DNA from: Thermoanaerobaculia bacterium
GTDB lineage: Bacteria > Acidobacteriota > Thermoanaerobaculia > Multivoradales > UBA5704
Direction of reading: 5' to 3'
DNA length: 33,678 nucleotides
Assembly: GCA_044226625.1 (NCBI GenBank)
Contig: JBGAGQ010000068.1
Coordinates: forward strand, 1-33,678
A program made the translations under genes and the position numbers. The notes under the pieces were generated by a model. The model saw nothing but the letters and a program-made list of their open reading frames with translations. It was not told where the DNA came from and did no database searches. Below, piece by piece: positions 15,115-32,831 of the stretch (position 1 is its first letter; each line of letters opens with the position of its first letter).

Positions 15115-16506
15115 ATGCGGCGGTTCGCTCTCTTCGCCTTCGCGCTTTTCGCCGTTTTTCGACCCACCGAGGCTCGTGCCGAGAACGCGCCGTTCGCCTT
15201 CTCCGGCCCCTTGTCTTCGTTGCTGCCCGCCGGCCGCGAGGTTGCTCCTCATGCGGCCGGAATCCCCTTCGCGATCGAGATCTCGGCGGGCGGCCAGCGG
15301 ATCGAAGCCGGTCCGTTCGCCCTGTTGGTTCCGGGAGCGACGAAGCCGTTCCGCCTGACTCTCACGGGCGCGGCGTTCTCGGACGGGAAGCTCACCGCGA
15401 AAGCGACGCTCACGAACGCCTCCGGCGCCGCGCTCGAGGGGCTGCGGCTCGATCTGACGCAGGCTACCGAGACGTTTAACGCGAAGGACGCCCAGGGGAA
15501 GCTCCAGAGCTCGAAGCGTCCGCGGACGGTCGTCGCGACACCTCTCCACTTCGGAGACCTCGGTGCCGAAGAGACGAGCGATTCCCTGCCGCTCGAGGCC
15601 ACCGGTCTCTCGTTCTCTCCCGAAACCGTGCGGATCACGGTGCGCGGCGTCGTGTCCGGCCTTCGCTACGAGAAAACCCTCTCGAACCCTTCCGCTTGCG
15701 GGGCCGGGCAGATCGAGGTCGACGAGCGCGGCTCCGTCTATCTCGCGGACGTCTGCGCACGGCGAATCGCGCGTATATCTCCGACCGGGGAAGTGTCCGG
15801 CATCGAGCTTCCCGCCAACGCCAAGGGCTTCGCCCGCGATCCCAGGAGCGGGCGGCTCGCCGCGACCTACGGGCACTTTCGCGAAATCCAGCTGATCGGT
15901 GCCGAGGAGCAGGTGCTCGGTACGCTCGGCGACGTCCAGGGGCTCGACGCCCTGCCGGATTTCCTCAGGTTCGACTCGCTCGGCAGGCTCTGGGTCGAGG
16001 CCGACGGCACGATCCTCCGCTTCGGCACCACCGGCCGGCGGGAGCAGCGCATCCGCACGATCGGCGACTTCGGCCTCGGCGGAGTCCTCTCTTTCGATCT
16101 CGCGCCGAGCGGCGCGCTCTGGGTGGTCGCCCGGGGAGCGCTCTACGTCCTGCCGGCCGACGGTCGCCCCGGCTCCCGCGTCGTCGAGCCGGGTCTCCGT
16201 CCCGGAGAGCTCACCTCCCCCGAAGCGCCGCGGGCCGCCTCGGATGGAAGCGTCTGGGTGGTCGAAGGAGCCGACCCGACCCATGGTGCGCCGGAGCGGA
16301 TTTCCGTGTTCGATCGCGCGGGGCGCCTGGTCCGTATCTTCGGGCGCGGTGCCAAGGCGCCGCTTCCGGGATTTCCTGCCGCCTACCACGAGGCGCAGAT
16401 CTTCCAGGCCAAGGATCTCGCCTTCGGCCCGGAGAATCGCGTCTACGTCGCGGGTCAAAGGCCGGGGAAGGACGGCGAGGTCGTGGTCGTGTTCCGCAGC
16501 TTCTAG
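15115..16506 (+). CDS. Secreted NHL-repeat beta-propeller protein
   Basis: Signal peptide; beta-rich N-domain; repeated blades (VDERGSVYLAD, FDSLGRLWV, LAPSGALWV, AFGPENRVYVA). Confidence 0.7.
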   Translation: MRRFALFAFALFAVFRPTEARAENAPFAFSGPLSSLLPAGREVAPHAAGIPFAIEISAGGQRIEAGPFALLVPGATKPFRLTLTGAAFSDGKLTAKATLTNASGAALEGLRLDLTQATETFNAKDAQGKLQSSKRPRTVVATPLHFGDLGAEETSDSLPLEATGLSFSPETVRITVRGVVSGLRYEKTLSNPSACGAGQIEVDERGSVYLADVCARRIARISPTGEVSGIELPANAKGFARDPRSGRLAATYGHFREIQLIGAEEQVLGTLGDVQGLDALPDFLRFDSLGRLWVEADGTILRFGTTGRREQRIRTIGDFGLGGVLSFDLAPSGALWVVARGALYVLPADGRPGSRVVEPGLRPGELTSPEAPRAASDGSVWVVEGADPTHGAPERISVFDRAGRLVRIFGRGAKAPLPGFPAAYHEAQIFQAKDLAFGPENRVYVAGQRPGKDGEVVVVFRSF

Positions 16507-17234
16507 ATCGGACCGATTCGGGCGAGTACCCCTGCCACCACGCGGTCGCAGCGTTCGGCGGCGAAGCTAAAGGCTTCCCGGGCCGCGATCCCCAGACGCC
16601 GTTCGAGATCTCCGCGGAGGCGGGTTCGGGCGCGGTGGAGGCGAACCTTCACCGCTTCGGGCGAAAGGTCGAGACTCTCCGCGGTCTCCGCCGTCGACAA
16701 CCCCTCGACCTCGCGCAGCAGGAAGACCGCGCGATAACGGTAGGGCATCGCACCCACGGCTCGTTCGAGCGCCGCGCGAAGCTCCCGGTTCCAAACGGCT
16801 TTTTCGGGGTCGAGGGTCGCCACCTCGGGCTCTTCGGCGTTGGACTTCCAGGCATTCATCCATGGGTCCTCCACGCCGGCGCTCTCCACCCTCGAGAGAC
16901 CGACGAAGCGGTGCGCGCGCCGCTTTCTCGCGAGCGCCTCGTAGAGCGCGATCTTCGAGAGCCAAGTCGTAAGCTTCGCCTCGCCGCGAAACTCCGCAAG
17001 GTGCTCAAAGGCGCGTACCCACGCGTCCTGCAGGACGTCTTCGGCCTCGAGGTCGCTGTCCACCACACCGCGCGCGATGCGGAAGAGGCGCTGGTTGTGG
17101 CGGCGCATCAGGAGCTCGAACAGCTCCTTTTCCCCCGCGGTAACTCGGCGCGCCAGGTCCTCGTCGGAGAGCTCGGTGGCGAGCGAGAGAGAAGGAGCTT
17201 CGGGAGGAGCCGGCACGGGACGGAGCGCGTTCAT
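16503..17234 (-). CDS. ECF RNA polymerase sigma factor with short C-terminal RCD extension
   Basis: Region 2 (AEDVLQDAW..FRGEAKLTTWL) and region 4 (YRAVFLLREVEGLSTAETA..VKVRLHRAR); tail AFSFAAERCDRVV. Confidence 0.93.
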   Translation of the reverse strand: MNALRPVPAPPEAPSLSLATELSDEDLARRVTAGEKELFELLMRRHNQRLFRIARGVVDSDLEAEDVLQDAWVRAFEHLAEFRGEAKLTTWLSKIALYEALARKRRAHRFVGLSRVESAGVEDPWMNAWKSNAEEPEVATLDPEKAVWNRELRAALERAVGAMPYRYRAVFLLREVEGLSTAETAESLDLSPEAVKVRLHRARTRLRGDLERRLGIAAREAFSFAAERCDRVVAGVLARIGPI

Positions 17235-20270: not shown

Positions 20271-21598
20271 GGCGATCTCCAGCGGTCGCGTGTCGAGAAC
20301 GCGAAGCCCGCGACCAACGGCCACGCGAGGTAGAAGAGGAAAGCCGCGCCGCGCGGCGTGGCGGCGAGTGGATAGCCGGAATACGCCGCGTCCGCGGCAT
20401 CCGGAGCGGGTGGTTTCACCCCCGCCAGCTCGTAGATCTGCGCGAGCACGACTGGCTCGATAGTCGATCGCAGCATCGCGCGGTTCTCGCCCACCTGGTA
20501 CCAGACCTCGCCGTACTCGGGCCCTTCGAACAGGCCGGAGCGGCCGGCGGCGGCGAGCTCGACCGAGAAATCGGGAAGCACGCGGCGCAGCTTCGCGAGG
20601 ACATTTCGCTCGAGATCCGTCAGGCGCGGATCTTCCGCCGCGAGGTTCGCCCGGACGCGCACCGGTCGCGTGATCTCCTCGAGCGCCGCTTCGTCGGCGC
20701 GCGAAAACGAGCTGCGGCGATCTTCGGCGAGATCCCAGGCGCCACGGAGATCGGCGACTGCGGCGACGGCACCGGTCGCAATGAGGAGCGCCAGCGCCGC
20801 GCGCAGGTGGCGGCGCGCGGGCGCCTCGTAGAGGTCGAGCTCGAAAGCGGCGAACGCGAGCGCGCCCAGGGTGGCGGCGAGGAGCGCCGCGAGCAGGGAG
20901 AGCGACAGGTCCCCCTGCTCGAAGCGCCGGAGCGCGGCGGCCGGAGTGAGACGTGCGGCCTTGGCGATCCAACCCGAGCGGCCCGCGGCGACGAAATCGA
21001 GCGCCCAGCCCCCGACCGTGAGGCCGAGCGTCGCGATCGCCGCGCTGGCGCTCGACCGGCTGACCGCCGCCGCGGCGAACGCGAGACCGGTCGCGAGCAG
21101 GGCATGGAGCAGATGGCCCAGGAGCACGCTGCCGGTCTCGGGGAGGGCGAGGTGGCCTCCATAGCCGCGCCAGAGCGCGAGAGCGACGAAGCCGGGGACC
21201 GCGGCGGCGAGGCCGCCCAGCCCGAGCACGAGGAGCTTCGAGGCGAGCCGCGCGGGGAGGCCCGCGTGGGTCTGGCCAAGCAGGAGCGCCGCGCCGCTCT
21301 CTCGTTCGGAAGAGAGCATCCGAATCGAGACGAACGGCAGGAGGAAAGTCACCGCGAGATCGTAGGCGCCGAACGTCGGAACGACGATGCCGTCGAGCGG
21401 TGAGAGCCCCTGGGCGAGCGCGGCCGGTCCGCCGCCGGCGCCGCTCATTTCCGCATACGACGCGACCGCCGTACGGAAAGCTTGCCCCACCAACGGACCG
21501 ATCAAGGCGAGAGACAGCCAGAACGAACGGGCGGCGATCAGCTCGCCGAGATCGAGCCGAAGCAGCGTGCGAAAGGTCGGAGCCTCACGTAAGGGCAA
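20267..21598 (-). CDS. ABC-2/GldF-like permease fused to a GldG-like extracytoplasmic domain
   Basis: LLPFVSIRMLSSERESG motif, multiple TM helices, then WDLAEDRRSSFS..EAALEEITRPV. Confidence 0.8.
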   Translation of the reverse strand: MPLREAPTFRTLLRLDLGELIAARSFWLSLALIGPLVGQAFRTAVASYAEMSGAGGGPAALAQGLSPLDGIVVPTFGAYDLAVTFLLPFVSIRMLSSERESGAALLLGQTHAGLPARLASKLLVLGLGGLAAAVPGFVALALWRGYGGHLALPETGSVLLGHLLHALLATGLAFAAAAVSRSSASAAIATLGLTVGGWALDFVAAGRSGWIAKAARLTPAAALRRFEQGDLSLSLLAALLAATLGALAFAAFELDLYEAPARRHLRAALALLIATGAVAAVADLRGAWDLAEDRRSSFSRADEAALEEITRPVRVRANLAAEDPRLTDLERNVLAKLRRVLPDFSVELAAAGRSGLFEGPEYGEVWYQVGENRAMLRSTIEPVVLAQIYELAGVKPPAPDAADAAYSGYPLAATPRGAAFLFYLAWPLVAGFAFSTRDRWRSP

Positions 21599-22334
21599 GG
21601 AAGACCTCCTCGAGCGTCCCCGAGGGGAGGCTCGCCCGCTCCCGCAGCTCGTCGATCGTTCCCTCCCCCACCACCCGGCCGTCGGAGAGCATGATCAGAC
21701 GGTCGCAGACGCGCGCTGCGTCGACCAGCTGGTGGATCGAAAGAAACAGCGTGCGCCCCAGCGCTGCCATCTCGCGCAGAAGCGCCGCCACGTCGCGCGT
21801 CTGGCGCAGATCGAGACCGTCGAACGGCTCGTCGAGCAGCAGGAGCGGCTGAGGCGAAAGCAGGGCGAGCGCGAGGAGAAAGCGCTTCCGCTCACCTTTG
21901 GACAGCGAGCCGGTCCGAGCGGCGGCGAGCCGCCCGAGGTCGAGCCGCGCGAGTAGGCCCTCGAGCGACGGGCCGCGCGAGAGAGTGGCCCCCCAGAGAT
22001 CGCGCCAGCCACCGAGAAGACGGCCGACGCCCTGGTCCGGCCAGGGAAGGATGCCGTCGGGAAGAAAGTACAGCTGGTCTCGGCGGCACCTCGGAGCCAC
22101 AGAGCGACCTCCGCCATCCGCCACGCGGCCGGCATCCGCCGGCAGGAGACCGGCCAAACATCGGAACAGCGTCGTCTTGCCCGCGCCGTTCGGTCCGACC
22201 AGGCCGAGCACCTCGCCCGGCCGGACCGAAAAGCCCACGTCGTCGAGCACGCGCCGCCCTCCGAAGCTCTTGCCGAGCCCGGATACCGCGAGCAGGTCGG
22301 TCGCGGCTTCCGCCGGAGAGGACGGCGCGGTCAT
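21585..22334 (-). CDS. ABC transporter ATP-binding protein
   Basis: Walker A GPNGAGKTT, signature LSKGE, Walker B LLLDEP, H-loop SIH; start moved to MTAPSS. Confidence 0.95.
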   Translation of the reverse strand: MTAPSSPAEAATDLLAVSGLGKSFGGRRVLDDVGFSVRPGEVLGLVGPNGAGKTTLFRCLAGLLPADAGRVADGGGRSVAPRCRRDQLYFLPDGILPWPDQGVGRLLGGWRDLWGATLSRGPSLEGLLARLDLGRLAAARTGSLSKGERKRFLLALALLSPQPLLLLDEPFDGLDLRQTRDVAALLREMAALGRTLFLSIHQLVDAARVCDRLIMLSDGRVVGEGTIDELRERASLPSGTLEEVFLALT

Positions 22335-22338
22335 GAGG

Positions 22339-25200
22339 CTAGAAGCGCAGCCGCGCTCCGAGCTGGAACTGCCGCCCCGGATCGACATTCGCGATCCCGC
22401 CGAGCTCCTGGCCGAACGTAGCGAGCGGTACTCCGTTCGTCGCGTTGCCGTAGACCCCGTTCCTTCCCACCACGTTTTCGTGGTCGGTGACGTTGAACAC
22501 CTCCGCCCGAAGCGTGAGCGTCGCCGCTCCCGACAACCGGAAGGCACGCTCGACGAACAGCGTGAGGTCGTAGAGAGCATCGCCGCGGAACGCGTTCCGG
22601 CCCACGACGTGGCCGTCGATCACCGGACGATCGGCGGTCGAACCGTCGCCGTTGTTGTCGGCTCCGGTGGTCGCGTTGTACGGCCGGCCCGTCGCATAGG
22701 TACCGACGCCTCCGGCGACGAAGCCAAACGGCAGATGGGCCGCTCCGGAAAGAACGACGCGATGCCGCTGATCGAGCAAGCTGTCGCCGAACTCCGAGCC
22801 GAGAAGGCGCGCGTCGCTCGGGTCGCCCCCCGGCGCGTCCGCTTCGAAGTTGTTGCGGGTATGCGACCAGGTGTACGATAGCCGGAGCGTACCCCGCCCC
22901 TGCCACTCATGACGCAGGTCCAGCTGCAGCGCGTCGTAACGACTCTCGCCCTGGTTCACCGTGGTCAGAATGCGGCGATAGCCGTTGGCCACCGGAATGA
23001 TCGGCCGGGTGAGATCGGCCGCGGCAGCGGAACGGGTCTGCCCGGGCGTGGTGCGGAGGAAAGCCGTCGGGGCGTTCAAGTCGATGTTCCGGTCGATGTC
23101 GGTGGTGACGGCGTGCACCACGTCGGCGCTCCCGAACCAGCCGCCGCCGAGATCGCGTTCGACCCCGAGCGTCGCCTGCTCGGTCTTCGGGTTCTTCAGC
23201 TCGCTCGGGTAGCCCGAAAGGCGCGAGACGTCGAAGAACCGGCTGTAGTAGGAGGTGCGCCCGGGCCGGATGGTGATGTCGCGCGGCGGCAGGACCGCCC
23301 CCGGAGGGAAACCCGGGATCGGGTTGAGCGACGTCGGAAAGCCAAGCTGCCCTGGAGCCGCGCTGAAGTTGAAGAACCCTTCGGGTCCGCCGAGCTCCCA
23401 ACCGGCGACGATGTTGGCGCGGATCTCCGAATAGTAGATACCGTAGCCGCCGCGGTACGTCGTCCGGCGCGACTTGTCCGGAGTCCAGGCGAAGCCAAGG
23501 CGCGGCGAGAGGTTGTCGGTCGCGTCGGTCAAGCTCTGCCGGTCGTAACGAAGACCGAGGTTCAGCACCAGATCGGGGCGGATGCGATAGTCGTCCTGGA
23601 CGAACAGCGACCAGAGCGACTCGCTCACCCGGTAGTCGACGTTGCCGAATCCTTGGGTGAACCGCTGGACGTCGGCGAGGGTGAGGCTCGCGGTCGGGAT
23701 CGCGGGCGAGATCCCGGTCTTGAACGTGAACTGGCCGAGCACGAACGGCGAGCCGAACTCCTGGCCGTCGCCGCCCGAGCGCGAACGGACATAGTCGCCG
23801 CCCGCCTTGATCAGGTGATCCCCCGCGACGACCGCGAAGGTGTCGGCGAGCTGGATCTGGCGGTTCGTGAGCTGAGCCGAGCGCGATTCACCCTCGGTCG
23901 AGACGCCCGGCCGGACGAGCTGGACCGACGGATGCGCCGGCTCGAATTCGGTGATCGGGTCGCCGTTCTGCCAGACCAGCCGCGCCTCGTTCGAGGCCGA
24001 GCCGGAGAGCACCCAGCTCTCGGCGAGCTGCACGGCTTCCGCCGCCCGCTTGAAATTGCGCGCGGCGCTCGGCAGCGCGATGCCGCCCACGGCGTCGGCC
24101 GGATTCGAATCGGTGAAGCGGTCGAGGTTGGCCCGGGCCGCGAGATGGTGAGACGAGGAGAGATCGGCGTCGACCCGGCCGAACAGGAGCGTCTGCCGGT
24201 ACTGGCCGGTGAAGACGCCCGGCGCGAGCGCCGAGGTGATCACCGAATCGCGGTCCTGCCGGTTGTATTCGCCGCCGACCGAGAAATAAGCCCGGTCGGG
24301 CACCAGCTGACCGCCCACGAAAAGGCTTCCCTGCCAGAGCTCGTCCTGGGCGTCCTGCTGGGTGACGGGGGTCTCCGTCTGGAGGCCGCCCGGCCGCGCG
24401 ACGAGGTTGAAGTCGCCTCGCAGATCGCGGGTGCCGGCGCGCGTGACCAGGTTGATCGCGCCTCCGGTCGTTCGGCCGTATTCTGCCGAGAACGCGTTCG
24501 TGAGCACCGAGAACTCTTGGATTGCCGCGAGCGGCACGTTGGTGAAAATCGTCTGGCGGCCCCAGGAGTCGTCGGCGCCGCTGCCGTCGATCACATAGGT
24601 CGCCTGGCGCCGGCCGCCCCCTTCGATCACGAACAGGGTGTTGTTCAGGAACAGGTCGCCGGTGCCGCGGGCCGAACGGACCGCCGAGGAGAGAAGCGGC
24701 AGGGACGTCACCTTACCGCCGAGGATCGGTGTCTCCGCGATGCGCTCGGCATCCATCCTCGTGCCGATCTGGGGCGAGTCGGTGCGCACGCCCTCGGTGG
24801 TTCCGAAGACGGTGATCGCATCCTCGACCGCGAGCGGCTGGAGCACCGCGTCGGCCGTGGCGGTTGCCCCGGCGCGGAGGGTGAGACCTGAGCGGGTTTC
24901 GGCGGCGAGACCCTCGTGCGAGAACTTGATCTCGTAACTGCCGGTGAGCGGCAGGCCCGAGAGGGAATAAGCGCCCGAGGCATCAGTCGAGATCGACCGG
25001 CTAAAGCCGGTCTCTGTGTTCGTGACCACGATCGAGGCGCCTGCGATCGGCGCGCCCGAAGCATCGGAGACGCTGCCGCGCAGCGCGCCCAGCCCGGGTG
25101 TCTCGGCCAGCGCCGGAAGAGTGACGAAGAGCAAAGAAAGGAGGATCAGGCTGGCGGCAGCGTGACGCTTCGCGCCGCCCGACGAGAGGGGGGTTCGCAT
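22339..25200 (-). CDS. TonB-dependent receptor (Oar-like) with carboxypeptidase-regulatory-like domain
   Basis: Signal peptide; GSVSDASGAPIAGA, IQEFSVLTNAFSAEYGRTTGGAINLVTRAGT, LNLGLRYD; C-terminal RQFQLGARLRF; SD AAGGA 8 nt before the ATG at 25200. Confidence 0.92.
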   Translation of the reverse strand: MRTPLSSGGAKRHAAASLILLSLLFVTLPALAETPGLGALRGSVSDASGAPIAGASIVVTNTETGFSRSISTDASGAYSLSGLPLTGSYEIKFSHEGLAAETRSGLTLRAGATATADAVLQPLAVEDAITVFGTTEGVRTDSPQIGTRMDAERIAETPILGGKVTSLPLLSSAVRSARGTGDLFLNNTLFVIEGGGRRQATYVIDGSGADDSWGRQTIFTNVPLAAIQEFSVLTNAFSAEYGRTTGGAINLVTRAGTRDLRGDFNLVARPGGLQTETPVTQQDAQDELWQGSLFVGGQLVPDRAYFSVGGEYNRQDRDSVITSALAPGVFTGQYRQTLLFGRVDADLSSSHHLAARANLDRFTDSNPADAVGGIALPSAARNFKRAAEAVQLAESWVLSGSASNEARLVWQNGDPITEFEPAHPSVQLVRPGVSTEGESRSAQLTNRQIQLADTFAVVAGDHLIKAGGDYVRSRSGGDGQEFGSPFVLGQFTFKTGISPAIPTASLTLADVQRFTQGFGNVDYRVSESLWSLFVQDDYRIRPDLVLNLGLRYDRQSLTDATDNLSPRLGFAWTPDKSRRTTYRGGYGIYYSEIRANIVAGWELGGPEGFFNFSAAPGQLGFPTSLNPIPGFPPGAVLPPRDITIRPGRTSYYSRFFDVSRLSGYPSELKNPKTEQATLGVERDLGGGWFGSADVVHAVTTDIDRNIDLNAPTAFLRTTPGQTRSAAAADLTRPIIPVANGYRRILTTVNQGESRYDALQLDLRHEWQGRGTLRLSYTWSHTRNNFEADAPGGDPSDARLLGSEFGDSLLDQRHRVVLSGAAHLPFGFVAGGVGTYATGRPYNATTGADNNGDGSTADRPVIDGHVVGRNAFRGDALYDLTLFVERAFRLSGAATLTLRAEVFNVTDHENVVGRNGVYGNATNGVPLATFGQELGGIANVDPGRQFQLGARLRF

Positions 25201-25314
25201 GGATGGCATCCTTGTCGGCGGCGCGCGGCCGCCAAGAAAGAACATGGCTCTGCGACCCGGAAATCGGGCCGCGGCTTCAGTGTCCGTCGGGCACGACGGA
25301 TGCCATCAAATGCG
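25196..25314 (-). promoter_or_regulatory. Candidate translational attenuator: long-range stem sequestering the SD and ATG of the TonB receptor
   Basis: Minus strand: CGCAT-TT-GATGGCATCC-GTCG (25314-25294) pairs with CGAC-AA-GGATGCCATC-C-ATGCG (25217-25196); competing local hairpins are present. Confidence 0.65.
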
Positions 25315-26031
25315 CAGGGGGCGGGGCCGCGGGACTCGAGCCAACGGCCTCGGGTTCGCTTCGGAGGGGGTGGCGGCAAGCCGCGGAGGCTCATGCCCCC
25401 TCGACGCCGCCGCCGGTCGCCCTAAGCCATCGGGCACCGCGGGATCCGCGAGGATCGACTCGCCCCGGGCGGGATGGTAGGCCGGCTCTTCGGGGGAGCT
25501 CTCGAGGCCCGACAGCGGGGGCGGCTCGCCCTCGCTACCAGCGATGGCGCGATCTACCCACCAGAGCTCGCCGCGAACGGTCCGGATCGCGCCTTCGCCT
25601 TCCCGTGTCGAGAGCGATGAGCTCTTCGGCGGGGTCTCGATCGAGAACGGCGCGCTCCACCCGACCTCGACCTCTTCCCCTTCGATCTTCCCTCGCAACG
25701 CGAGGCGGGCTCCCGCAGCAGGCAGGCGGGGAACGCGCCAGCGGTACGAGGTGGCGTTCCCCTCGAGCTCGTGGGTGAGTCGGACGGGAAAGCTCCGGCC
25801 GCCATCGACGGACAGGAGAAGCTCGACCTCCGACGCCGGAGGCGCTCCGGTCCAGCGAATCAAAACGTCGTCGCCGGGCGCGAAGCGGCTCCCGGAAGCG
25901 GGCTCGAGAAAACGCACCTCGAGCCCCCGCAGGCCCCCGAAGTTTTCCCCGGCGAGGGCGGGCAGGGCGGCGAGGCCGCAGCAGACCCACATGCAGGTCC
26001 GCAAGGGGAGGAGGCGAAACAGCCGATTCAT
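25306..26031 (-). CDS. Secreted leader protein: Ig-like domain, disordered linker, Pro/Arg-rich C-terminus
   Basis: Signal-like N-terminus with CxxxCC; PASGSRF..IRW..LLLSVDGGRSF..YRWRVP beta-sandwich; low-complexity linker; ends RVPRPRPLRI. Confidence 0.75.
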   Translation of the reverse strand: MNRLFRLLPLRTCMWVCCGLAALPALAGENFGGLRGLEVRFLEPASGSRFAPGDDVLIRWTGAPPASEVELLLSVDGGRSFPVRLTHELEGNATSYRWRVPRLPAAGARLALRGKIEGEEVEVGWSAPFSIETPPKSSSLSTREGEGAIRTVRGELWWVDRAIAGSEGEPPPLSGLESSPEEPAYHPARGESILADPAVPDGLGRPAAASRGHEPPRLAATPSEANPRPLARVPRPRPLRI

Positions 26032-26043
26032 CGCGCGCTAGGG

Positions 26044-26072
26044 AGCCTAGGGAAAGCGAACCCCACCGTCAA
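26044..26072 (-). promoter_or_regulatory. Sigma70-type promoter TTGACG-N17-TAGGCT upstream of the leader ORF
   Basis: -35 at 26072-26067, -10 at 26049-26044, ATG 12 nt downstream. Confidence 0.6.
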
Positions 26073-26105
26073 ATCAGCGAATACGCGAGGCCGGCTCGGC
26101 TTCCT

Positions 26106-27404
26106 TTATCGCAGCTCGAAAATTTGCGCCTTGATCGCATTACCCGGGCACCAGGATGCCTGCGGCATGCTCCCCTCCCAGGCGAACAGGACGCGGCCCC
26201 CGGACAGCGCGGCGCCGAACCCGTGCGCGGGGGTGAAATCGAGATCCGGCCGCGCCGACGCGACATCGACGCGCGAACCTCGACGGACGAGGTCGGCCCC
26301 AAGATGGACCGCGAGCAACCGCTCCCCGTCGATCCAAGCGAGGGCGAAGGATCCTCCGCCGTCGCGCAGGAGGACCGGCAGACCGAACGTTCCGACCGGG
26401 CCGAGATCGCGCGCTGCGCCCGCGAGCCGCCCTTCGGCGGACAGGCGGCTCGCGTAGAGCCGAAGCGTTCCGTTTTGAGCCTTCTTCACCCACACCACGA
26501 CCGATTGGCCATCGCCGGTCGAAGCGATCGCCACACCCTCGGCGGCTCTCGTCGCGAGGCGCACCTTCGCCGTTACGGCGTGGCCTGCGGCGTCGAAACG
26601 CTGGCTCCAGAGCTGCGCGAGACGAAGCGGGTTCGGGCCTTCGATCGGCTCGAGCCAGGCGACGGTCGCGATTCCCGCGGCATCGAGGGCCACCGCAGGC
26701 CGGACCTGCAGCTCGCTCCATCGGGGATTGCCGAGGCGCAGAGGCGCGATCGTCGGCGCACCGGCCACGTCGAACCGCAGCAGGTTGTGACGAACGGTCG
26801 GACGCGAGGCGGGAGGGACCGGGCGGGTGATCTCGGGCCAGGCGAGCGCGCTCGCGCCGCCGCCGCCCGCGAGGCTCGGCAGGTCGCCGAAGATTCGGCT
26901 CGAGGCGTCGCTCAGCCGGCGCGGCTCGCCCTCGGCCACACCCGCGGCGAACCACTGACCGAAGACGTCCCGCCCGTCGCTACGATCCTGGGCCCAGGCG
27001 ATTTGGAATCGACCGTCGCCGAGATCGCCGAGCACGGGGCTCGAAAAGCGCCGCAGCCCAGGCACTCCCGGCAGATCGATCAGGAACGAGGTCCCGAAAC
27101 CACCGGAACGGTCCACGAGCTGGCCCTTGATCTGGTTCATCATGACGTCGGCCGGGCTCGGACCGAAGGACTTTTCGTCCCGCCACGCGACGACGAACCC
27201 GTCGCCGACCGCAGCCGCAGCCGGCTGAGATCGGACGACCACCACGTTGGCGGGACCGGGGTCGACCGGCGGCGGGGTGATGATCTCCGGGATGAGGTCG
27301 AACACCGCCGTCACCGGCGCGAGATCGGCGTGACCGGCCGAGGCGACGAACAGGCCGACCGCCCCCAAGAAGAACCCATCGAATTTTCGGCTCGTGGCTT
27401 TCAT
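26106..27404 (-). CDS. Secreted repeat protein (probable beta-propeller), function unknown
   Basis: GGAG SD; signal peptide; repeats of the form P-A-V-A..G-F-V-V-A-W..Q-R-F-D (seen as GFVVAW, FQIAW, ALAW, TVAW, VVVW, ALAW, LFAW). Confidence 0.75.
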   Translation of the reverse strand: MKATSRKFDGFFLGAVGLFVASAGHADLAPVTAVFDLIPEIITPPPVDPGPANVVVVRSQPAAAAVGDGFVVAWRDEKSFGPSPADVMMNQIKGQLVDRSGGFGTSFLIDLPGVPGLRRFSSPVLGDLGDGRFQIAWAQDRSDGRDVFGQWFAAGVAEGEPRRLSDASSRIFGDLPSLAGGGGASALAWPEITRPVPPASRPTVRHNLLRFDVAGAPTIAPLRLGNPRWSELQVRPAVALDAAGIATVAWLEPIEGPNPLRLAQLWSQRFDAAGHAVTAKVRLATRAAEGVAIASTGDGQSVVVWVKKAQNGTLRLYASRLSAEGRLAGAARDLGPVGTFGLPVLLRDGGGSFALAWIDGERLLAVHLGADLVRRGSRVDVASARPDLDFTPAHGFGAALSGGRVLFAWEGSMPQASWCPGNAIKAQIFELR

Positions 27405-27508
27405 CCGCGCTTCTCCATAAGGACCTGCCGCTCCTCGGGCGAGAAGGTGATTACAGCAGACTTCCGCGCGCTCGGCCAACTCGCTCCGACAGGAACCGGC
27501 CGGCGCCG

Positions 27509-29293
27509 TCAGACGAAGATGCGTGGCGGCTCCTGGGTCGAGCGAGCCTTCTCGGACTCGTGGACCTCGCCATCGATCGAGCGATAGGTTCCCTGCCCCA
27601 GGTTCAGGAGCACGCGATTCCTGCCGAGGCGCTTCGCCTCGTAGAGAGCCTCGTCGGCGAAAACCATCAGCTCCGCGGGCGCCTTGACGTGAAGCTCGGG
27701 AAATGCCGCGACGCCGGCGCTCAGCGTGATCGGTACGCGCTTGCCGTCGATCACCAGCTCGATTTCCTCGACCTTCTCCCGCAAGCGCTCGGCGAGCGAC
27801 AGCGCGGTTCCACCGTTGGCCGCTTCGAGCAGGATCGCGAACTCCTCCCCGCCGTAGCGTGCACAGAGGTCGTCCTCGCGGCGGTGCGCGTCGAGCATCG
27901 CGGCGGCCGAGATCAACGCCCGGTCGCCCACGTCGTGGCCATAGGTATCGTTGATCCTCTTGAAGTGATCGAGATCGCACAGGATCACCGCCATCGGCGA
28001 CCCGCCGGTAAGGGCGCGAGCATGCGCCTCCTGGAGCCGGCGTTCGAGGATTCGCCGGACGGCCACCCCGGTGAGAGGATCCGCGCGCGCCTCCCGGTCG
28101 AGCAGCGCGTGCTCGACCGAGGTCGCCATCTGCGGCAGAAGCCGATCGAGCCGCTCGATCGCCGGCGCGTCGACCCGCCGCGGATCACACCAGAGGCGCA
28201 GGTGGACCACCGAGGCGCGCTCGGTCGAAATGCTTCGGTCGACGACTTCCCAGGGGCGCCGTCGATGGAAGCCGAGCAGTGCCGGGGGGTATTCCTCAGG
28301 CTCCGGCGCGCCGTCGAAAATGGCGGCGCCGCCGCGCGGAGCCCACCAGCTCCGCTCCGGCGCGCTCAGCGGGGCGATCTCGAGCTGAAACCAGCCGAAG
28401 TCGAGCACGCGGCCGCATTCGATGGCGATCTGACGCACCACCATCGACAGCTCTCCGGCGCCGAACATGTTCCGGCCGGCAATGCCGATTCGCTCGAGGT
28501 CGTTGGCTCGCTGTTCGTGCCGGTCGGAGGCATGGGCCTGTCGCGCCGCCTCGAGGATCGCGACGGCGAGCAGCAGCAGGATCGCGACCGCCATCGGCCA
28601 GCCGATCGCGAGGCCGATCGCGAGGACGACCGCTCCCCCGATCCAACCGATCGCGTCGAGCGCCAAGGGCTCCAGGATCGGCCGCAGCTCGACCGGTCGA
28701 TCCGGACGCCGCAGCCAGCGATCGAGCGCCTCGAGCGCGAACCAGATCGAGACATAGACGAGAAGACCGGCGAGCACCGCGGCCGCGACCGAGGCCGGGT
28801 CGCCCCAGCTCGGCGGCCGCCGAGACGCCGCAAAGCGAAACGCCGCTCCGGCGGCGAGAACGGCGAGGACGATGCGGCCGGCGCTTTCGAGCGACCGGAT
28901 GGTGCGTCGGCGCTCCACCGTCGTCGACTCCGGACCGGGTGCCCGGCTCGCGAGACGGGCGAGCGATCGGTACGCCCACTCGACCGCGAGGAATGCGGCG
29001 ACCGCGAGCATCGCGACCGAGACCGAACGAGCGCGCAGCAGCAGGAGCGGCAGGGCGAGCGCCCCGAGCCCGAGCGTCCCCGTGCCCGCGAGCGGCCGGT
29101 GCGACGCCGCCAAGGCCAGGGCGAGCGTAGCGAGCAGGAGCTCTCCCCAGCCCGCCGTTCGTGCTCCCCCTCCGGCTATCGCCAGAGCGATCGGCGCGCC
29201 GGCGAGCGACAGCAACGCCGCCCAGACGTCGCGAGGAATCGCGATCGACGGTCGCCCGTGGGCGCGCGGGAGGAGCGGCGGCTGGTCCGGCAT
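27509..29293 (-). CDS. Membrane-anchored diguanylate cyclase (GGDEF)
   Basis: Hydrophobic N-terminal half; DPLTG, CDLDHFKRINDTYGHDVGD, RxxD I-site (REDD), RYGGEEF, ADEALYEAK; start approximate. Confidence 0.92.
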   Translation of the reverse strand: MPDQPPLLPRAHGRPSIAIPRDVWAALLSLAGAPIALAIAGGGARTAGWGELLLATLALALAASHRPLAGTGTLGLGALALPLLLLRARSVSVAMLAVAAFLAVEWAYRSLARLASRAPGPESTTVERRRTIRSLESAGRIVLAVLAAGAAFRFAASRRPPSWGDPASVAAAVLAGLLVYVSIWFALEALDRWLRRPDRPVELRPILEPLALDAIGWIGGAVVLAIGLAIGWPMAVAILLLLAVAILEAARQAHASDRHEQRANDLERIGIAGRNMFGAGELSMVVRQIAIECGRVLDFGWFQLEIAPLSAPERSWWAPRGGAAIFDGAPEPEEYPPALLGFHRRRPWEVVDRSISTERASVVHLRLWCDPRRVDAPAIERLDRLLPQMATSVEHALLDREARADPLTGVAVRRILERRLQEAHARALTGGSPMAVILCDLDHFKRINDTYGHDVGDRALISAAAMLDAHRREDDLCARYGGEEFAILLEAANGGTALSLAERLREKVEEIELVIDGKRVPITLSAGVAAFPELHVKAPAELMVFADEALYEAKRLGRNRVLLNLGQGTYRSIDGEVHESEKARSTQEPPRIFV

Positions 29294-29369
29294 CGGTTGC
29301 GAACGACGAGAGCCGGGCTCGATTCTAGCCCGTGGGGCTGGATATGCTGGCGCCCGGAGGATCCTCGCC

Positions 29370-29741
29370 ATGGAAGTGGTCGATCTCGCCCAGAAGCTCA
29401 GCCGGTTCTCGGATCATTGGCGCCCCCGGATCGTCGGCGAGCTCAACGGCCAGGAGGTCAAGCTGGTCAAATTTCAGGGCGAGTTCGTCTGGCACCACCA
29501 CGACGATGCCGACGAGCTGTTCCTGGTCGTCTCCGGCCGCTTCCGGATGGAGCTGCGCGATCGGACGCTCGATCTCGAAACCGGACAGTTCCTCATCGTG
29601 CCGCGCGGCGTCGAGCATCGGCCCGTCGCCGAGAAGGAGGTCGCGATCCTCCTGTTCGAGCCCGCGGGAGTGGTCAATACAGGCTCGGCCACCGGAGCGG
29701 CCGAAGCCTCCGATTTGACCGCGCCGGAGCAGCGGGCCTGA
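29370..29741 (+). CDS. Cupin domain protein
   Basis: HWRPRIVGELNG, GEFVWHHHDDADELFLV, IVPRGVEHRP; GGAGG SD. Confidence 0.92.
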   Translation: MEVVDLAQKLSRFSDHWRPRIVGELNGQEVKLVKFQGEFVWHHHDDADELFLVVSGRFRMELRDRTLDLETGQFLIVPRGVEHRPVAEKEVAILLFEPAGVVNTGSATGAAEASDLTAPEQRA

Positions 29742-31281: not shown

Positions 31282-32831
31282 ATGATCGCCATCCTTACCT
31301 CGACCTTGCTCGCCTCGACCCTGGTCGCCGCCGCACCTCCGAGCCAGCCGCCTACGAGTCCCGCTCATGGGGCCGCCGAGGTCGCACGGCATTTTCGAAG
31401 CCGCAACGAGGGGAAGATCGTGCGCGACTTCATCGACCTGTTGTCGATTCCGAACGTGCCGGGCTACCCCGCCGCCCCCGTCGGCCTCGCGAAGAACGCC
31501 GATGAGATCGCCCGCCGGATCGAAAAACGAGGAGTCCGGACCCGCCGGCTCGAGGTTCCCGGCGCGCCGCCCGCCGTCTACGGGGAGCGCGCGACGCCAG
31601 GCGCCACCTCGACCGTCGTCTTCTACGCCCATTACGACGGCCAACCGGTCGATCCCGCACGCTGGACCAACGGCGACCCGTTCCGTCCCTATCTCACCGA
31701 TCGGGCGCTCGCGGACGGCGGGAAACCGATCCCTCTTCCTTCCGACGGCGCGCCGTTTCCCCTCGAGGCCCGCCTCTACGCCCGCTCGGCAGGAGACGAC
31801 AAGGCACCCGTGGTGGCGCTGCTCGCGGCGCTCGACGCCCTCGACGAGGCGGGCATTCGGCCGACCGTGAACCTCAAGTTCTTCTTCGAAGGGGAGGAGG
31901 AGCTCGGCTCGCCCCACCTCGCCCGGATGCTGGCGGAGCATCGCGACCTGCTCGCCGCGGACCTTTGGGTCTTCTGCGACGGCCCGGTCCATCAGAGCCG
32001 AAGGCCGCAGATCGTCTTCGGCGTGCGCGGGATCACGAGCTTCGAGCTCACCGTGTATGGCGCCCGACGCGAGCTGCACAGCGGTCACTACGGCAACTGG
32101 GCGCCGAACCCCGCCTTCGATCTCGCGCGGCTGCTCGCCTCGATGAAGGACGACGACGGCCGCGTCCTGGTCGCCGATTTCGAGCGCGGAATGGAGCCCG
32201 TGGGCGATCTCGAACGCCAGGCGATCGCCGAGGCGCCACCGGTCGACGCCGACCTGAAGCGCGAGCTCTGGATCGACCGGGCGGAGCGGTCGCCCGAGAG
32301 GCTCGAAGAGGCGATCCTGCATCCGTCCCTGAACGTCCGCGGGCTCGCGAGCGCCGCCGTGGGTGCGGCGGCGCGCAACGTCGTCCCGGACCGAGCGACC
32401 GCGGCGATCGACATCCGTCTGGTCAAGGGCTGGATCCGCGGACGATGGTCGATCGAGTGATCGCCCACGTCCGGAAGGAAGGATATTTCGTCACCGAGGA
32501 CGAGCCGACCGAAAGCGAGCGCCTCGCCCACCCGCGGGTCGCGCGGATCGAGCGCGAGCCGGGAGGCTACCGGGCGATCCGGAACGCCCATGGACCTTCC
32601 CGCGGCGCGCCGGGTGGTCGCCGCGCTCGAGGCCGCGCACGGGGATTTGGTCCGATTGCCCACCTTGGGGGAAGCCTGCCGCTCGCCGCGTTCGACGACG
32701 TCCTCGGGGTGCCGCTGCTCATCGTGCCGATCGCCAACCATGACGACAATCAGCACACCCACGACGAAAACCTTCGGCTCGAGAACCTCTGGGACGGAAT
32801 CGAAACCTTCGCCGCGCTCTTTGCGATGTAG
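31282..32831 (+). CDS. Secreted M20/M25/M40 metallopeptidase with three apparent frameshifts (about 32428, 32583, 32670)
   Basis: YAHYDGQP, RSAGDDKAP, EGEEE, HSGHYG; the C-terminal part (DPRTMVDRV.., MDLPAARR..PTLG, GSLP..NHDDNQHTHDENL) is split across frames. Confidence 0.85.

Follow-up and report, generated by a model that had tools for sequence, protein, structure and literature searches.

The mRNA end of an Ig-like leader protein family pairs with the ribosome-binding sites of TonB-dependent receptor genes, a probable case of translational coupling in Acidobacteriota

Introduction

In a 33,678-nt stretch of DNA from a Thermoanaerobaculia bacterium (Acidobacteriota; GenBank assembly GCA_044226625.1, contig JBGAGQ010000068.1), the messenger RNA (mRNA) end of a 241-residue leader open reading frame (ORF) is complementary to the ribosome-binding site (RBS) of the TonB-dependent receptor gene that follows it, and the same arrangement recurs across a large, previously unnamed family of leader proteins. 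We refer to the whole stretch as the window and give all positions in its coordinates; the leader, the helix and the receptor gene all lie on its minus strand. Gram-negative bacteria take up scarce nutrients mainly through TonB-dependent receptors, of which Acidobacteriota have very many. Comparison of the window with related loci points to conserved translational coupling, in which the RBS of the receptor would be masked until the leader has been translated to its end. We assign this reading a probability of roughly 0.7. A conserved C-terminal tail and a linker of fixed length, both described below, are probably part of the same device.

Results

Pairing of the leader end with the receptor start

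The leader (P0001; 25306–26031) ends in the residues PLRI and the stop codon TGA (25308–25306), and it is followed, after an intergenic region of 105 nt (25201–25305), by a 953-aa TonB-dependent receptor (22339–25200). The receptor is read here from its most plausible start codon (ATG, 25200–25198), which has the Shine-Dalgarno sequence (SD) AAGGA (25213–25209) before it. An initial annotation of this DNA had described complementarity in blocks of 5, 10 and 4 bp between the leader end and the SD and ATG 105 nt away, and the description proved exact. The 5′ arm (25294–25314) is composed of CGCAU (25314–25310), a UU bulge, GAUGGCAUCC (25307–25298) and GUCG (25297–25294). The 3′ arm (25196–25217) is composed of CGAC (25217–25214), an AA, GGAUGCCAUC (25211–25202), a bulged C and AUGCG (25200–25196). 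Between them, the last two sense codons of the leader, its stop codon and the next 12 nt are placed opposite the SD, spacer and start codon of the receptor.

The minimum-free-energy (MFE) fold of 25180–25330 on the minus strand uses this long-range helix and reaches −65.9 kcal/mol, compared to −54.1 ± 3.9 kcal/mol for 200 dinucleotide shuffles (z −3.05), of which one was as good as the native sequence. In the fold, the helix closes a junction of three local hairpins that recur in orthologs. Among eight orthologous spacers of the window’s genus, 88.3% of the 120 pair cells hold standard pairs, versus 19–44% when the 3′ arm is slid by one to three columns. The arm pairs found across the orthologs (GAUGGCAUCC/GGAUGCCAUC, GAUGGCGUCC/GGACGCC.UC and GAUGACGUCC/GGACGUCAUC) include two compensatory G-C to A-U double changes, a result reached by 3 of 500 shuffles. 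The stem therefore covaries, which was one of the checks that the initial annotation had proposed. Five of these loci (L003, L004, L005, L007 and L102) also carry an insertion of 55–95 nt that lies past the third hairpin and ahead of the SD (alignment columns ~111–187) and forms a palindromic hairpin of its own (GGATCGA...TCGATCC); the insertion is missing from the window and from L002, and L006 has only ~13 extra nt.

Conservation of the arrangement across the leader family

Loci for comparison were taken from 80 of 199 relatives in public genomes and from metagenome contigs (75 loci); the ORF end was readable in 167 loci, 142 of them unique. Two kinds of C-terminal tail predominate. Seventy-three of the unique loci end in P-x-R-x-stop (short tails, the window’s class; for example PLRI, PLRE, PLRV, PMRV and PQRE) and 61 in the R-x-N-[EI] type (long tails with R at −4 and N at −2; for example DILLLIQRQNE, VRLLIHRFNE and DLLLVCSRWNI), leaving eight others.

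The synteny of leader and receptor is conserved. Of the 121 unique loci whose sequence continues for 700 nt or more past the leader stop, 102 carry a signal-peptide ORF that has an SD before it and lies no more than 260 nt downstream, at a median spacer of 98 nt, and several of the 19 misses do have such a gene that falls below the thresholds used. The downstream genes that were checked are TonB-dependent receptors. A place before such genes was another of the checks that the initial annotation had proposed, and it holds for most loci. Between leader and receptor lie 40–240 nt of untranslated RNA. The receptors belong to at least four types by N-terminal sequence, and these do not go with particular kinds of tail: QRQNE tails stand before receptors of both ~945 and ~710 aa. 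Three leader-receptor pairs occur in the window’s own genome, each with a tail (PLRI-TGA, VRLAIHRFNE-TAG and LLQTLRLNQ-TGA) and a receptor type that differ from those of the others, the two paralogous pairs being located on contigs C35 (leader stop at 22376, plus strand) and C81 (85954–86508, plus strand).

A few leaders have lost their receptor. In L077 and L095 the leader tail ADILLLIQRQNE-TAG is followed within ~120 nt by an ORF starting MNL[LI]HDPWLPVRRRSG, which presumably resembles the N-terminus of the type I-E protein Cse1/CasA and suggests that CRISPR-Cas genes were inserted, or the region rearranged, downstream of a leader left without its receptor. In L111, L117 and L126 a PLRI-TGA leader precedes, by ~155 nt from its stop, an ORF starting MRALFCSFESPGFLFPAIGLA that we take to be glycosyltransferase-like.

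Predicted pairing between the leader stop region and the receptor RBS is a family-wide principle with arm sequences that are specific to each class. Members with short spacers, many of only 48–60 nt, form a single hairpin whose 5′ arm begins 0–8 nt past the stop and whose 3′ arm is the SD and often reaches as far as the AUG; the sequences of the arms differ from lineage to lineage. In the VRLLIHRFNE class, UAG-ACCGAGACCUC lies opposite GAGGUCUCG. In the DILLLIQRQNE class, the leucine codons CUCCUCCUG are the exact complement of the receptor’s CAGGAGGAG, and GAACGA, which encodes the Asn-Glu end, lies opposite a conserved UCGUUC. A different geometry is found in L078, L079 and L083, which precede QSPN-type receptors; here a local hairpin (GGAAC-AUCUA-GUUCC) holds the leader stop in its loop, and the receptor start is only 50 nt away.

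Base-pair-probability metaplots of the 102 loci show that the partners of the SD window (12 nt) cluster at stop−30 to −19 and stop+0 to +17. The share of SD pairing aimed at the interval [stop−36, stop+21) is 0.56, versus 0.14 after dinucleotide shuffling of the leader end. The same share is 0.10 (median 0.00; Mann-Whitney U test, p 8e-35) in 494 other same-strand junctions of the window’s genome, which were called crudely by GC content at third codon positions (GC3), and a share of at least 0.5 is found in 73% of family loci versus 7% of these background junctions. Pairing is also specific to the partner in the wider family. In the short class the segment after the stop pairs with its own RBS at −19.7 kcal/mol, compared to −14.5 kcal/mol for permuted partners (z −10, 0 of 5000 permutations as good), and in the long class the corresponding z is −6.4. 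The leader segment that pairs with the SD (the anti-SD) falls mostly inside the footprint of a terminating ribosome, with a share of 0.39 in the short class and 0.48 in the VRLLIHRFNE class.

Could such pairing arise by chance between mere neighbors in GC-rich DNA? The SD is 0.62 paired even after shuffling, and our first duplex test (RNAduplex) did not discriminate. Against this, the partners pile up at specific positions, the pairing is in four- to fivefold excess over both the shuffles and the 494 junctions, none of the 5000 permutations was as good, and the arms carry compensatory changes. We regard chance complementarity as hardly credible.

It is also conceivable that the intergenic region of the window’s class is a riboswitch-like element, in which a ligand, rather than translation of the leader, would set access to the SD. 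TonB-dependent receptor genes are common riboswitch targets, and in the window’s fold several hairpins, also seen in orthologs, meet in a junction that the helix closes. On the other hand, a search of six loci on both strands against Rfam 15 gave no relevant match at E ≤ 1, the single-hairpin spacers of 48–60 nt keep the same stop/RBS pairing, and the junction is interrupted by a large insertion in five of the eight orthologs. We therefore consider a riboswitch very unlikely.

Within the background set, the C35 junction, which belongs to the genome’s second family member, ranked in the top 10 of 494 for stop-to-SD pairing. Four unrelated junctions direct more than 90% of their SD pairing at the upstream stop (C37, minus strand, 31524; C47, minus strand, 41886; C16, minus strand, 25927; C93, plus strand, 119305) and may be further instances in this genome of coupling bridged by a hairpin.

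The C-terminal tail and the linker

The tail codons of the window’s leader (CCC CTG CGC ATT, 25309–25320) encode the conserved P-L-R-I, and in all classes the tail abuts the stop codon in a fixed register. The initial annotation had noted a Pro/Arg-rich end. This is present in the window as PRPRPLRI, but the extended form is specific to the window and PLRI is the only part that is conserved. Strict tail patterns are found in 97 of 109 single-domain proteins of a representative set, most of the other 12 being near variants (RLNL, TLRI), whereas the background for both patterns is 141 of 33,830 ORF frames of the window’s genome. Beyond position −12 conservation of the tail is at most 35%, except for a proline at −16 (56%). 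The Pro, Leu and Arg residues of the tail are encoded by CCN, CTN plus TTR, and CGN plus AGR codons. This use of differing synonymous codon families indicates selection on the amino acids and not on the RNA alone.

The tail is preceded by a low-complexity linker rich in Ala, Pro, Arg, Ser and Gly (leader residues 161–237; 25321–25551). Its sequence is poorly conserved while its length is held constant: the distance to the C-terminus from W157, the invariant Trp at which the fold ends, is 73–90 aa in 113 of 113 rows that have the Trp (122 rows in the alignment), with a median of 83, and it measures 80–90 aa in long-tail and 73–85 aa in short-tail proteins. The expectation that the tail would be conserved while the linker diverges thus holds for the family.

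Codon choice at the very end of the leader is biased. Long tails end in TAG in 49 of 61 loci and short tails in TGA in 52 of 73, while the genome-wide frequencies of these stops are 35% and 52%. As last sense codon, GAA is used in 48 of 52 Glu ends, against a genome usage of 23%, and ATT in 8 of 8 loci of the window’s genus, against 6% of the genome’s Ile codons; these rare last sense codons fall at bases predicted to be the least paired. In long-tail loci, the invariant A-U-A at bases −1 to +1 (GA[A] [UA]G) is the least paired stretch (0.30–0.36) between two well-paired helices, and Watson-Crick pairing does not explain the fixation of GAA and UAG there.

A scan of the window’s genome for tail patterns upstream of long signal-peptide proteins passed only the window locus; the pattern missed the two paralogs, and the scan is thus uninformative on modularity.

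The leader protein

The leader is a conserved, folded protein family and not a disposable upstream ORF (uORF). Residues 1–27 of P0001 form a signal-peptide-like N-terminus, which was judged, there and in homologs, by eye and with a hydrophobicity heuristic. AlphaFold2, run on the 122-row alignment, predicts a beta-sandwich at residues 40–160 (25552–25914; predicted local distance difference test score, pLDDT, >90) that includes a conserved GELWW hairpin, followed by a low-confidence region at residues 161–241 (pLDDT 41–69). Foldseek searches against the PDB returned resemblance to generic immunoglobulin (Ig) and FN3 folds only. These results agree with the initial annotation, which had drawn a 241-aa ORF with a signal peptide, a compact beta-sandwich and a low-complexity linker. 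Eight residues are invariant across the 122 family sequences (W60, E68, E70, L73, D76, P101, R113 and E120). The only cysteines of P0001, at residues 13, 17 and 18, are all within the signal peptide.

In Pfam, P0001 gave a sub-threshold match to Kre9_KNH (PF10342; E 0.0025, 18.9 bits against a cutoff of 24.6), and four leaders searched against NCBIfam gave no match. Neighbors in the ESM Atlas belong to unnamed clusters (scores ≤0.86), 17–39% of whose members carry PF10342. Leader matches were found in 39 of 61 related genomes that were searched, and full-length orthologs, ~50% identical, in six genomes of the same genus. Family members are almost all from metagenome-assembled genomes of Thermoanaerobaculia or other Acidobacteriota. 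A profile search of 1.84 billion cluster representatives returned 4121 matches at E ≤ 1e-3 and 808 at E ≤ 1e-30, the latter being protein clusters that include giant multi-repeat proteins with the same Ig-like domain. Among the best 150 of the 4121 matches, 109 are single-domain proteins of 190–290 aa and the remainder are giant proteins. In these (P0130–P0152 and others; 2000–6500 aa), the Ig-like domain is repeated in tandem up to 36 times. Because of these tandem copies, the leader family looks like a single-domain offshoot of the repeat domain of large surface proteins.

Surroundings of the locus

The receptor of the window carries CarboxypepD_reg and Plug domains and an OMP_b-brl_4/TonB_dep_Rec barrel. 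It is followed by an ORF for an ABC-transporter ATPase, identified by Pfam (21585–22580, minus strand), whose listed start overlaps the 3′ end of the receptor gene, so that the true start is probably later. At its distant end, the run of genes on this strand includes an extracytoplasmic function (ECF) sigma factor (16503–17234, minus strand). On the other side, the ORF directly upstream of the leader (624 aa; 26106–27980, minus strand) has no Pfam or NCBIfam match, and a GGDEF diguanylate cyclase and an M20 peptidase lie near the locus (27509–29371, minus strand, and 31282–32460, plus strand).

The initial annotation had placed a sigma70-like promoter before the leader, with TTGACG (26072–26067) and TAGGCT (26049–26044) separated by 17 nt (26044–26072). 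The letters are present, but this call is not supported. A sigma-70 consensus scan of 25000–26300 returned no sites, TAGGCT matches TATAAT at three of six positions, and as a −10 box it would give a 5′ untranslated region of ~5 nt without an SD. We treat the promoter as doubtful.

One public DNA run covers nearly the whole window, and three RNA-library runs from one study cover small shares of it. The contigs from the RNA libraries are single, of low depth, and lie in the leader ORF only (25304–25592, 25786–25946 and 25771–26030); none spans the spacer or the receptor start, and the data are too thin for conclusions on expression, co-transcription or habitat. Contig ends at 25304, 2 nt beyond the leader stop, and at 26030, 1 nt within the start codon, are likewise too thinly supported to mean anything.

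Discussion

The pairing of the leader-end mRNA with the SD and start codon of the receptor means that the receptor RBS would be masked unless a ribosome finishes the leader. A ribosome reaching the very end of the leader would melt the helix and free the RBS, which would adjoin the stop codon at the helix base, the fold bringing stop and start codons together. The dependence of receptor translation on leader translation, as well as any pause or sensing, we infer from the anatomy of the locus and from comparison.

A further suggestion, which we hold tentatively, is that the tail sets the dwell time of the ribosome at the ORF end when the Ig-like domain is already outside the membrane, making the leader a SecM- or CutF-like nascent-chain sensor that acts at or near termination. 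The length of the linker would let the Ig-like domain clear the ribosomal tunnel and the translocon as the ribosome reaches the stop. In favor of such a role for the tail are its fixed register at the stop, the stop-codon bias, the rare and unpaired last codons, the constant linker and the precedents discussed below, as well as the presence in one genome of three tails before three receptor types. In its fullest form, which we think somewhat unlikely, the family would be a set of sensors for outer-membrane uptake. In such a sensor, the linker would act as a ‘ruler’ and the tail (P-x-R-x-UGA or R-x-N-[EI]-UAG) would stall the ribosome. The stall would last until the periplasmic domain folds or binds a ligand and so pulls on the chain, and for that time the ribosome would hold the RBS helix open.

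Several considerations weigh against coupling of this kind, or against a pause at the stop codon as part of it. Receptor starts and signal peptides were assigned by our own heuristic, and the loci are phylogenetically related, so that the p-values overstate independence. The tail classes were defined by the same patterns that were later counted in 134 of 142 loci, and R−2, R−4 and N−2 are therefore fixed by construction; the conserved positions of the long class that are free of this are L−8 (85%) and L−7 (77%). No RAPP or RGPP occurs at the C-terminal end in the 142 loci, extending to the family what had been said of the window’s tail, and there is no C-terminal proline as in known arrest and termination-stall peptides; the 17 pattern matches in the last 40 aa are PPP runs or a distant RAGP in the linker.

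The RNA evidence has its own difficulties. In the DILLLIQRQNE class (25 loci), the anti-SD is formed by the Leu-Leu-Leu codons 19–27 nt before the stop, outside the footprint (share 0.62 vs 0.01) and behind the terminating ribosome, so that a stall at the stop would not hold the helix open. The helix of this class is also near invariant with few compensatory changes, and when 19 spacers of the QRQNE class were folded together with RNAalifold, both the Leu-codon/SD helix and GAACGA/UCGUUC came out with almost no covariation; conservation of peptide and of RNA is consequently inseparable there. When a ribosome was modeled on the stop by keeping bases −15 to +14 unpaired, the probability that the SD is paired fell from 0.71 to 0.63, and two stacked ribosomes gave 0.58. 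The SD stays paired because GC-rich spacers offer other partners, and with so small a fall equilibrium folding does not demonstrate opening. RNAduplex, applied to 77 loci with the arms [stop−9, stop+23) and [start−24, start+6), gave −17.5 kcal/mol versus −17.4 kcal/mol for a control arm 40 nt inside the ORF, with −14.8 kcal/mol for mismatched partners. This test was too blunt and was replaced by the metaplots, shuffles, genomic background and partner permutation. Finally, the conserved folded domain of the leader implies that its product matters as a protein.

This last point leads to an alternative that we find plausible while still short of probable, namely plain coupling without a pause, in which tail and linker serve the mature periplasmic protein by docking to TonB, the receptor or another envelope partner, or as a tether, an export signal or a degron. 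The Ig-like domain is confidently folded with eight invariant residues in 122 sequences, docking peptides usually take the form of a short conserved motif at the C-terminus, preceded by a disordered linker, ~80 residues could span the periplasm, and the anti-SD position of the DILLLIQRQNE class misfits a stall at the stop. The long tail D-I-L-L-L-I/T-Q... also has what we take to be the pattern of a TonB box. Such a protein role would, however, leave the stop-codon bias and the rare, unpaired last sense codons unexplained. It also sits poorly with the independence of tail type from receptor type; since the tails differ within one genome, which uses three of them, a common partner would have to read very different peptides. 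A complex prediction of the PLRI-tailed leader L032 (residues 23–215) with its own 705-aa receptor (residues 25–705) gave no answer (score 0.00), and we counted it neither for nor against binding. Overall, plain coupling with a protein-level role of the tail explains the data about as well as a pause does.

How does translational coupling with a putative pause compare to known systems? In SecM, VemP and MifM, a ribosome stalled at the leader end opens mRNA that sequesters an SD (PMC7897499; PMC10987492). Like the leaders of SecM-secA, VemP-secDF2 and MifM-yidC2, which with ApdA, ApcA and ApdP are grouped as Sec/YidC monitoring substrates, the present family has an N-terminal export signal, a conserved C-terminal peptide and a leader-end mRNA that sequesters the next SD. 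Unlike in those cases, the downstream gene encodes an outer-membrane TonB-dependent receptor and not Sec/YidC machinery, the leader is 215–275 aa long and contains an Ig-like domain that is conserved, the motif directly adjoins the stop and lacks RAPP/RAGP, and arrest is putative. CutF-cutO of Rhodobacter capsulatus combines an exported protein, which senses with its periplasmic part at a time when its C-terminal motif has yet to leave the ribosome, and a stem-loop that shields the next RBS; the CutF motif itself did not stall in a LepB test (10.1101/2022.11.11.516240), which leaves this precedent incomplete as well. Our family shares the exported leader, the C-terminal motif and the RNA masking the next RBS; however, CutF is a small DUF2946-type protein with a Cu-binding motif and a proline-rich end, whereas the leaders described here have an Ig-like fold, no CxxC and other tails.

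By target, the nearest system is CruR-bfrG of Bordetella pertussis, in which a signal-peptide leader with a C-terminal motif precedes a TonB-dependent transporter gene and acts through Rho-dependent termination (PMC9426467). RAPP/RGPP uORFs have likewise been reported upstream of TonB-dependent receptors (PMC12992588; PMC10987492). The likeness lies in the signal-peptide leader directly upstream of the transporter gene. The differences are that CruR is a DUF2946 protein with CxxC and RAPP and is Rho-dependent, none of which is seen here, where SD masking is found instead; neither DUF2946 homology nor a CxxC was detected in P0001 by Pfam, NCBIfam and Cys positions. Rho-dependent polarity could nevertheless operate by the same logic as described for the CruR transporter operon (PMC9426467), with a ribosome at the leader end shielding the intergenic RNA and so controlling transcription into the receptor gene. 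The untranslated spacers of 40–240 nt would suit it. We judge it improbable, as the conserved and covarying feature is the pairing of SD and start codon, which Rho control does not need, and the spacer is predicted to be highly structured. Structured RNA is unfavorable for Rho loading.

Two further comparisons concern the stop codon and the coupling. TnaC is a termination-stage arrest peptide, and its motif, as would fit a termination block, ends exactly at the stop with conserved stop-codon identity, like the tails described here. PepNL is another peptide of this kind (PMC11890864). Neither has sequence similarity to our tails, which lack a C-terminal Pro, and a termination block remains putative for them. 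In the coat-replicase pair of phage MS2, long-range pairing occludes an RBS and couples translation. There, as in our family, coding or stop-proximal sequence of the upstream gene pairs with the RBS of the downstream one, which upstream translation is needed to open; the leaders add an invariant tail, a fixed-length linker, codon and stop biases, and hundreds of paralogous leader-receptor pairs. The family is thus functionally nearest to SecM-secA and CutF-cutO and by target to CruR-bfrG, and it is a member of none of them. We found no description of the Ig-like family, its tails or its RNA in the literature, though supplementary lists of candidate uORFs (PMC12992588; PMC10987492; PMC7897499) could hold members.

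The regulation of receptors in uncultured Acidobacteriota lineages of soil and sludge is largely unknown. The work described here defines a widespread, unannotated, family-wide module in which an exported Ig-like protein has a linker of fixed length and an invariant tail, and its mRNA forms a helix between stop codon and RBS. If the tail proves not to be a pause signal, the module would be a natural example of hairpin-bridged translational coupling, and TonB-dependent receptors would have in the leader a new partner in the periplasm, whose C-terminal tag is so far unexplained. With the tail as a pause signal, the arrest-peptide field would gain new motifs acting at the stop codon, together with a new class of regulated targets. 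And should the leaders indeed act as sensors, they would provide two new motifs for arrest or for stalling at termination, with stop codons specific to one release factor, and the SecM/CutF principle would then apply to hundreds of receptor genes, in Acidobacteriota as well as in neighboring phyla.

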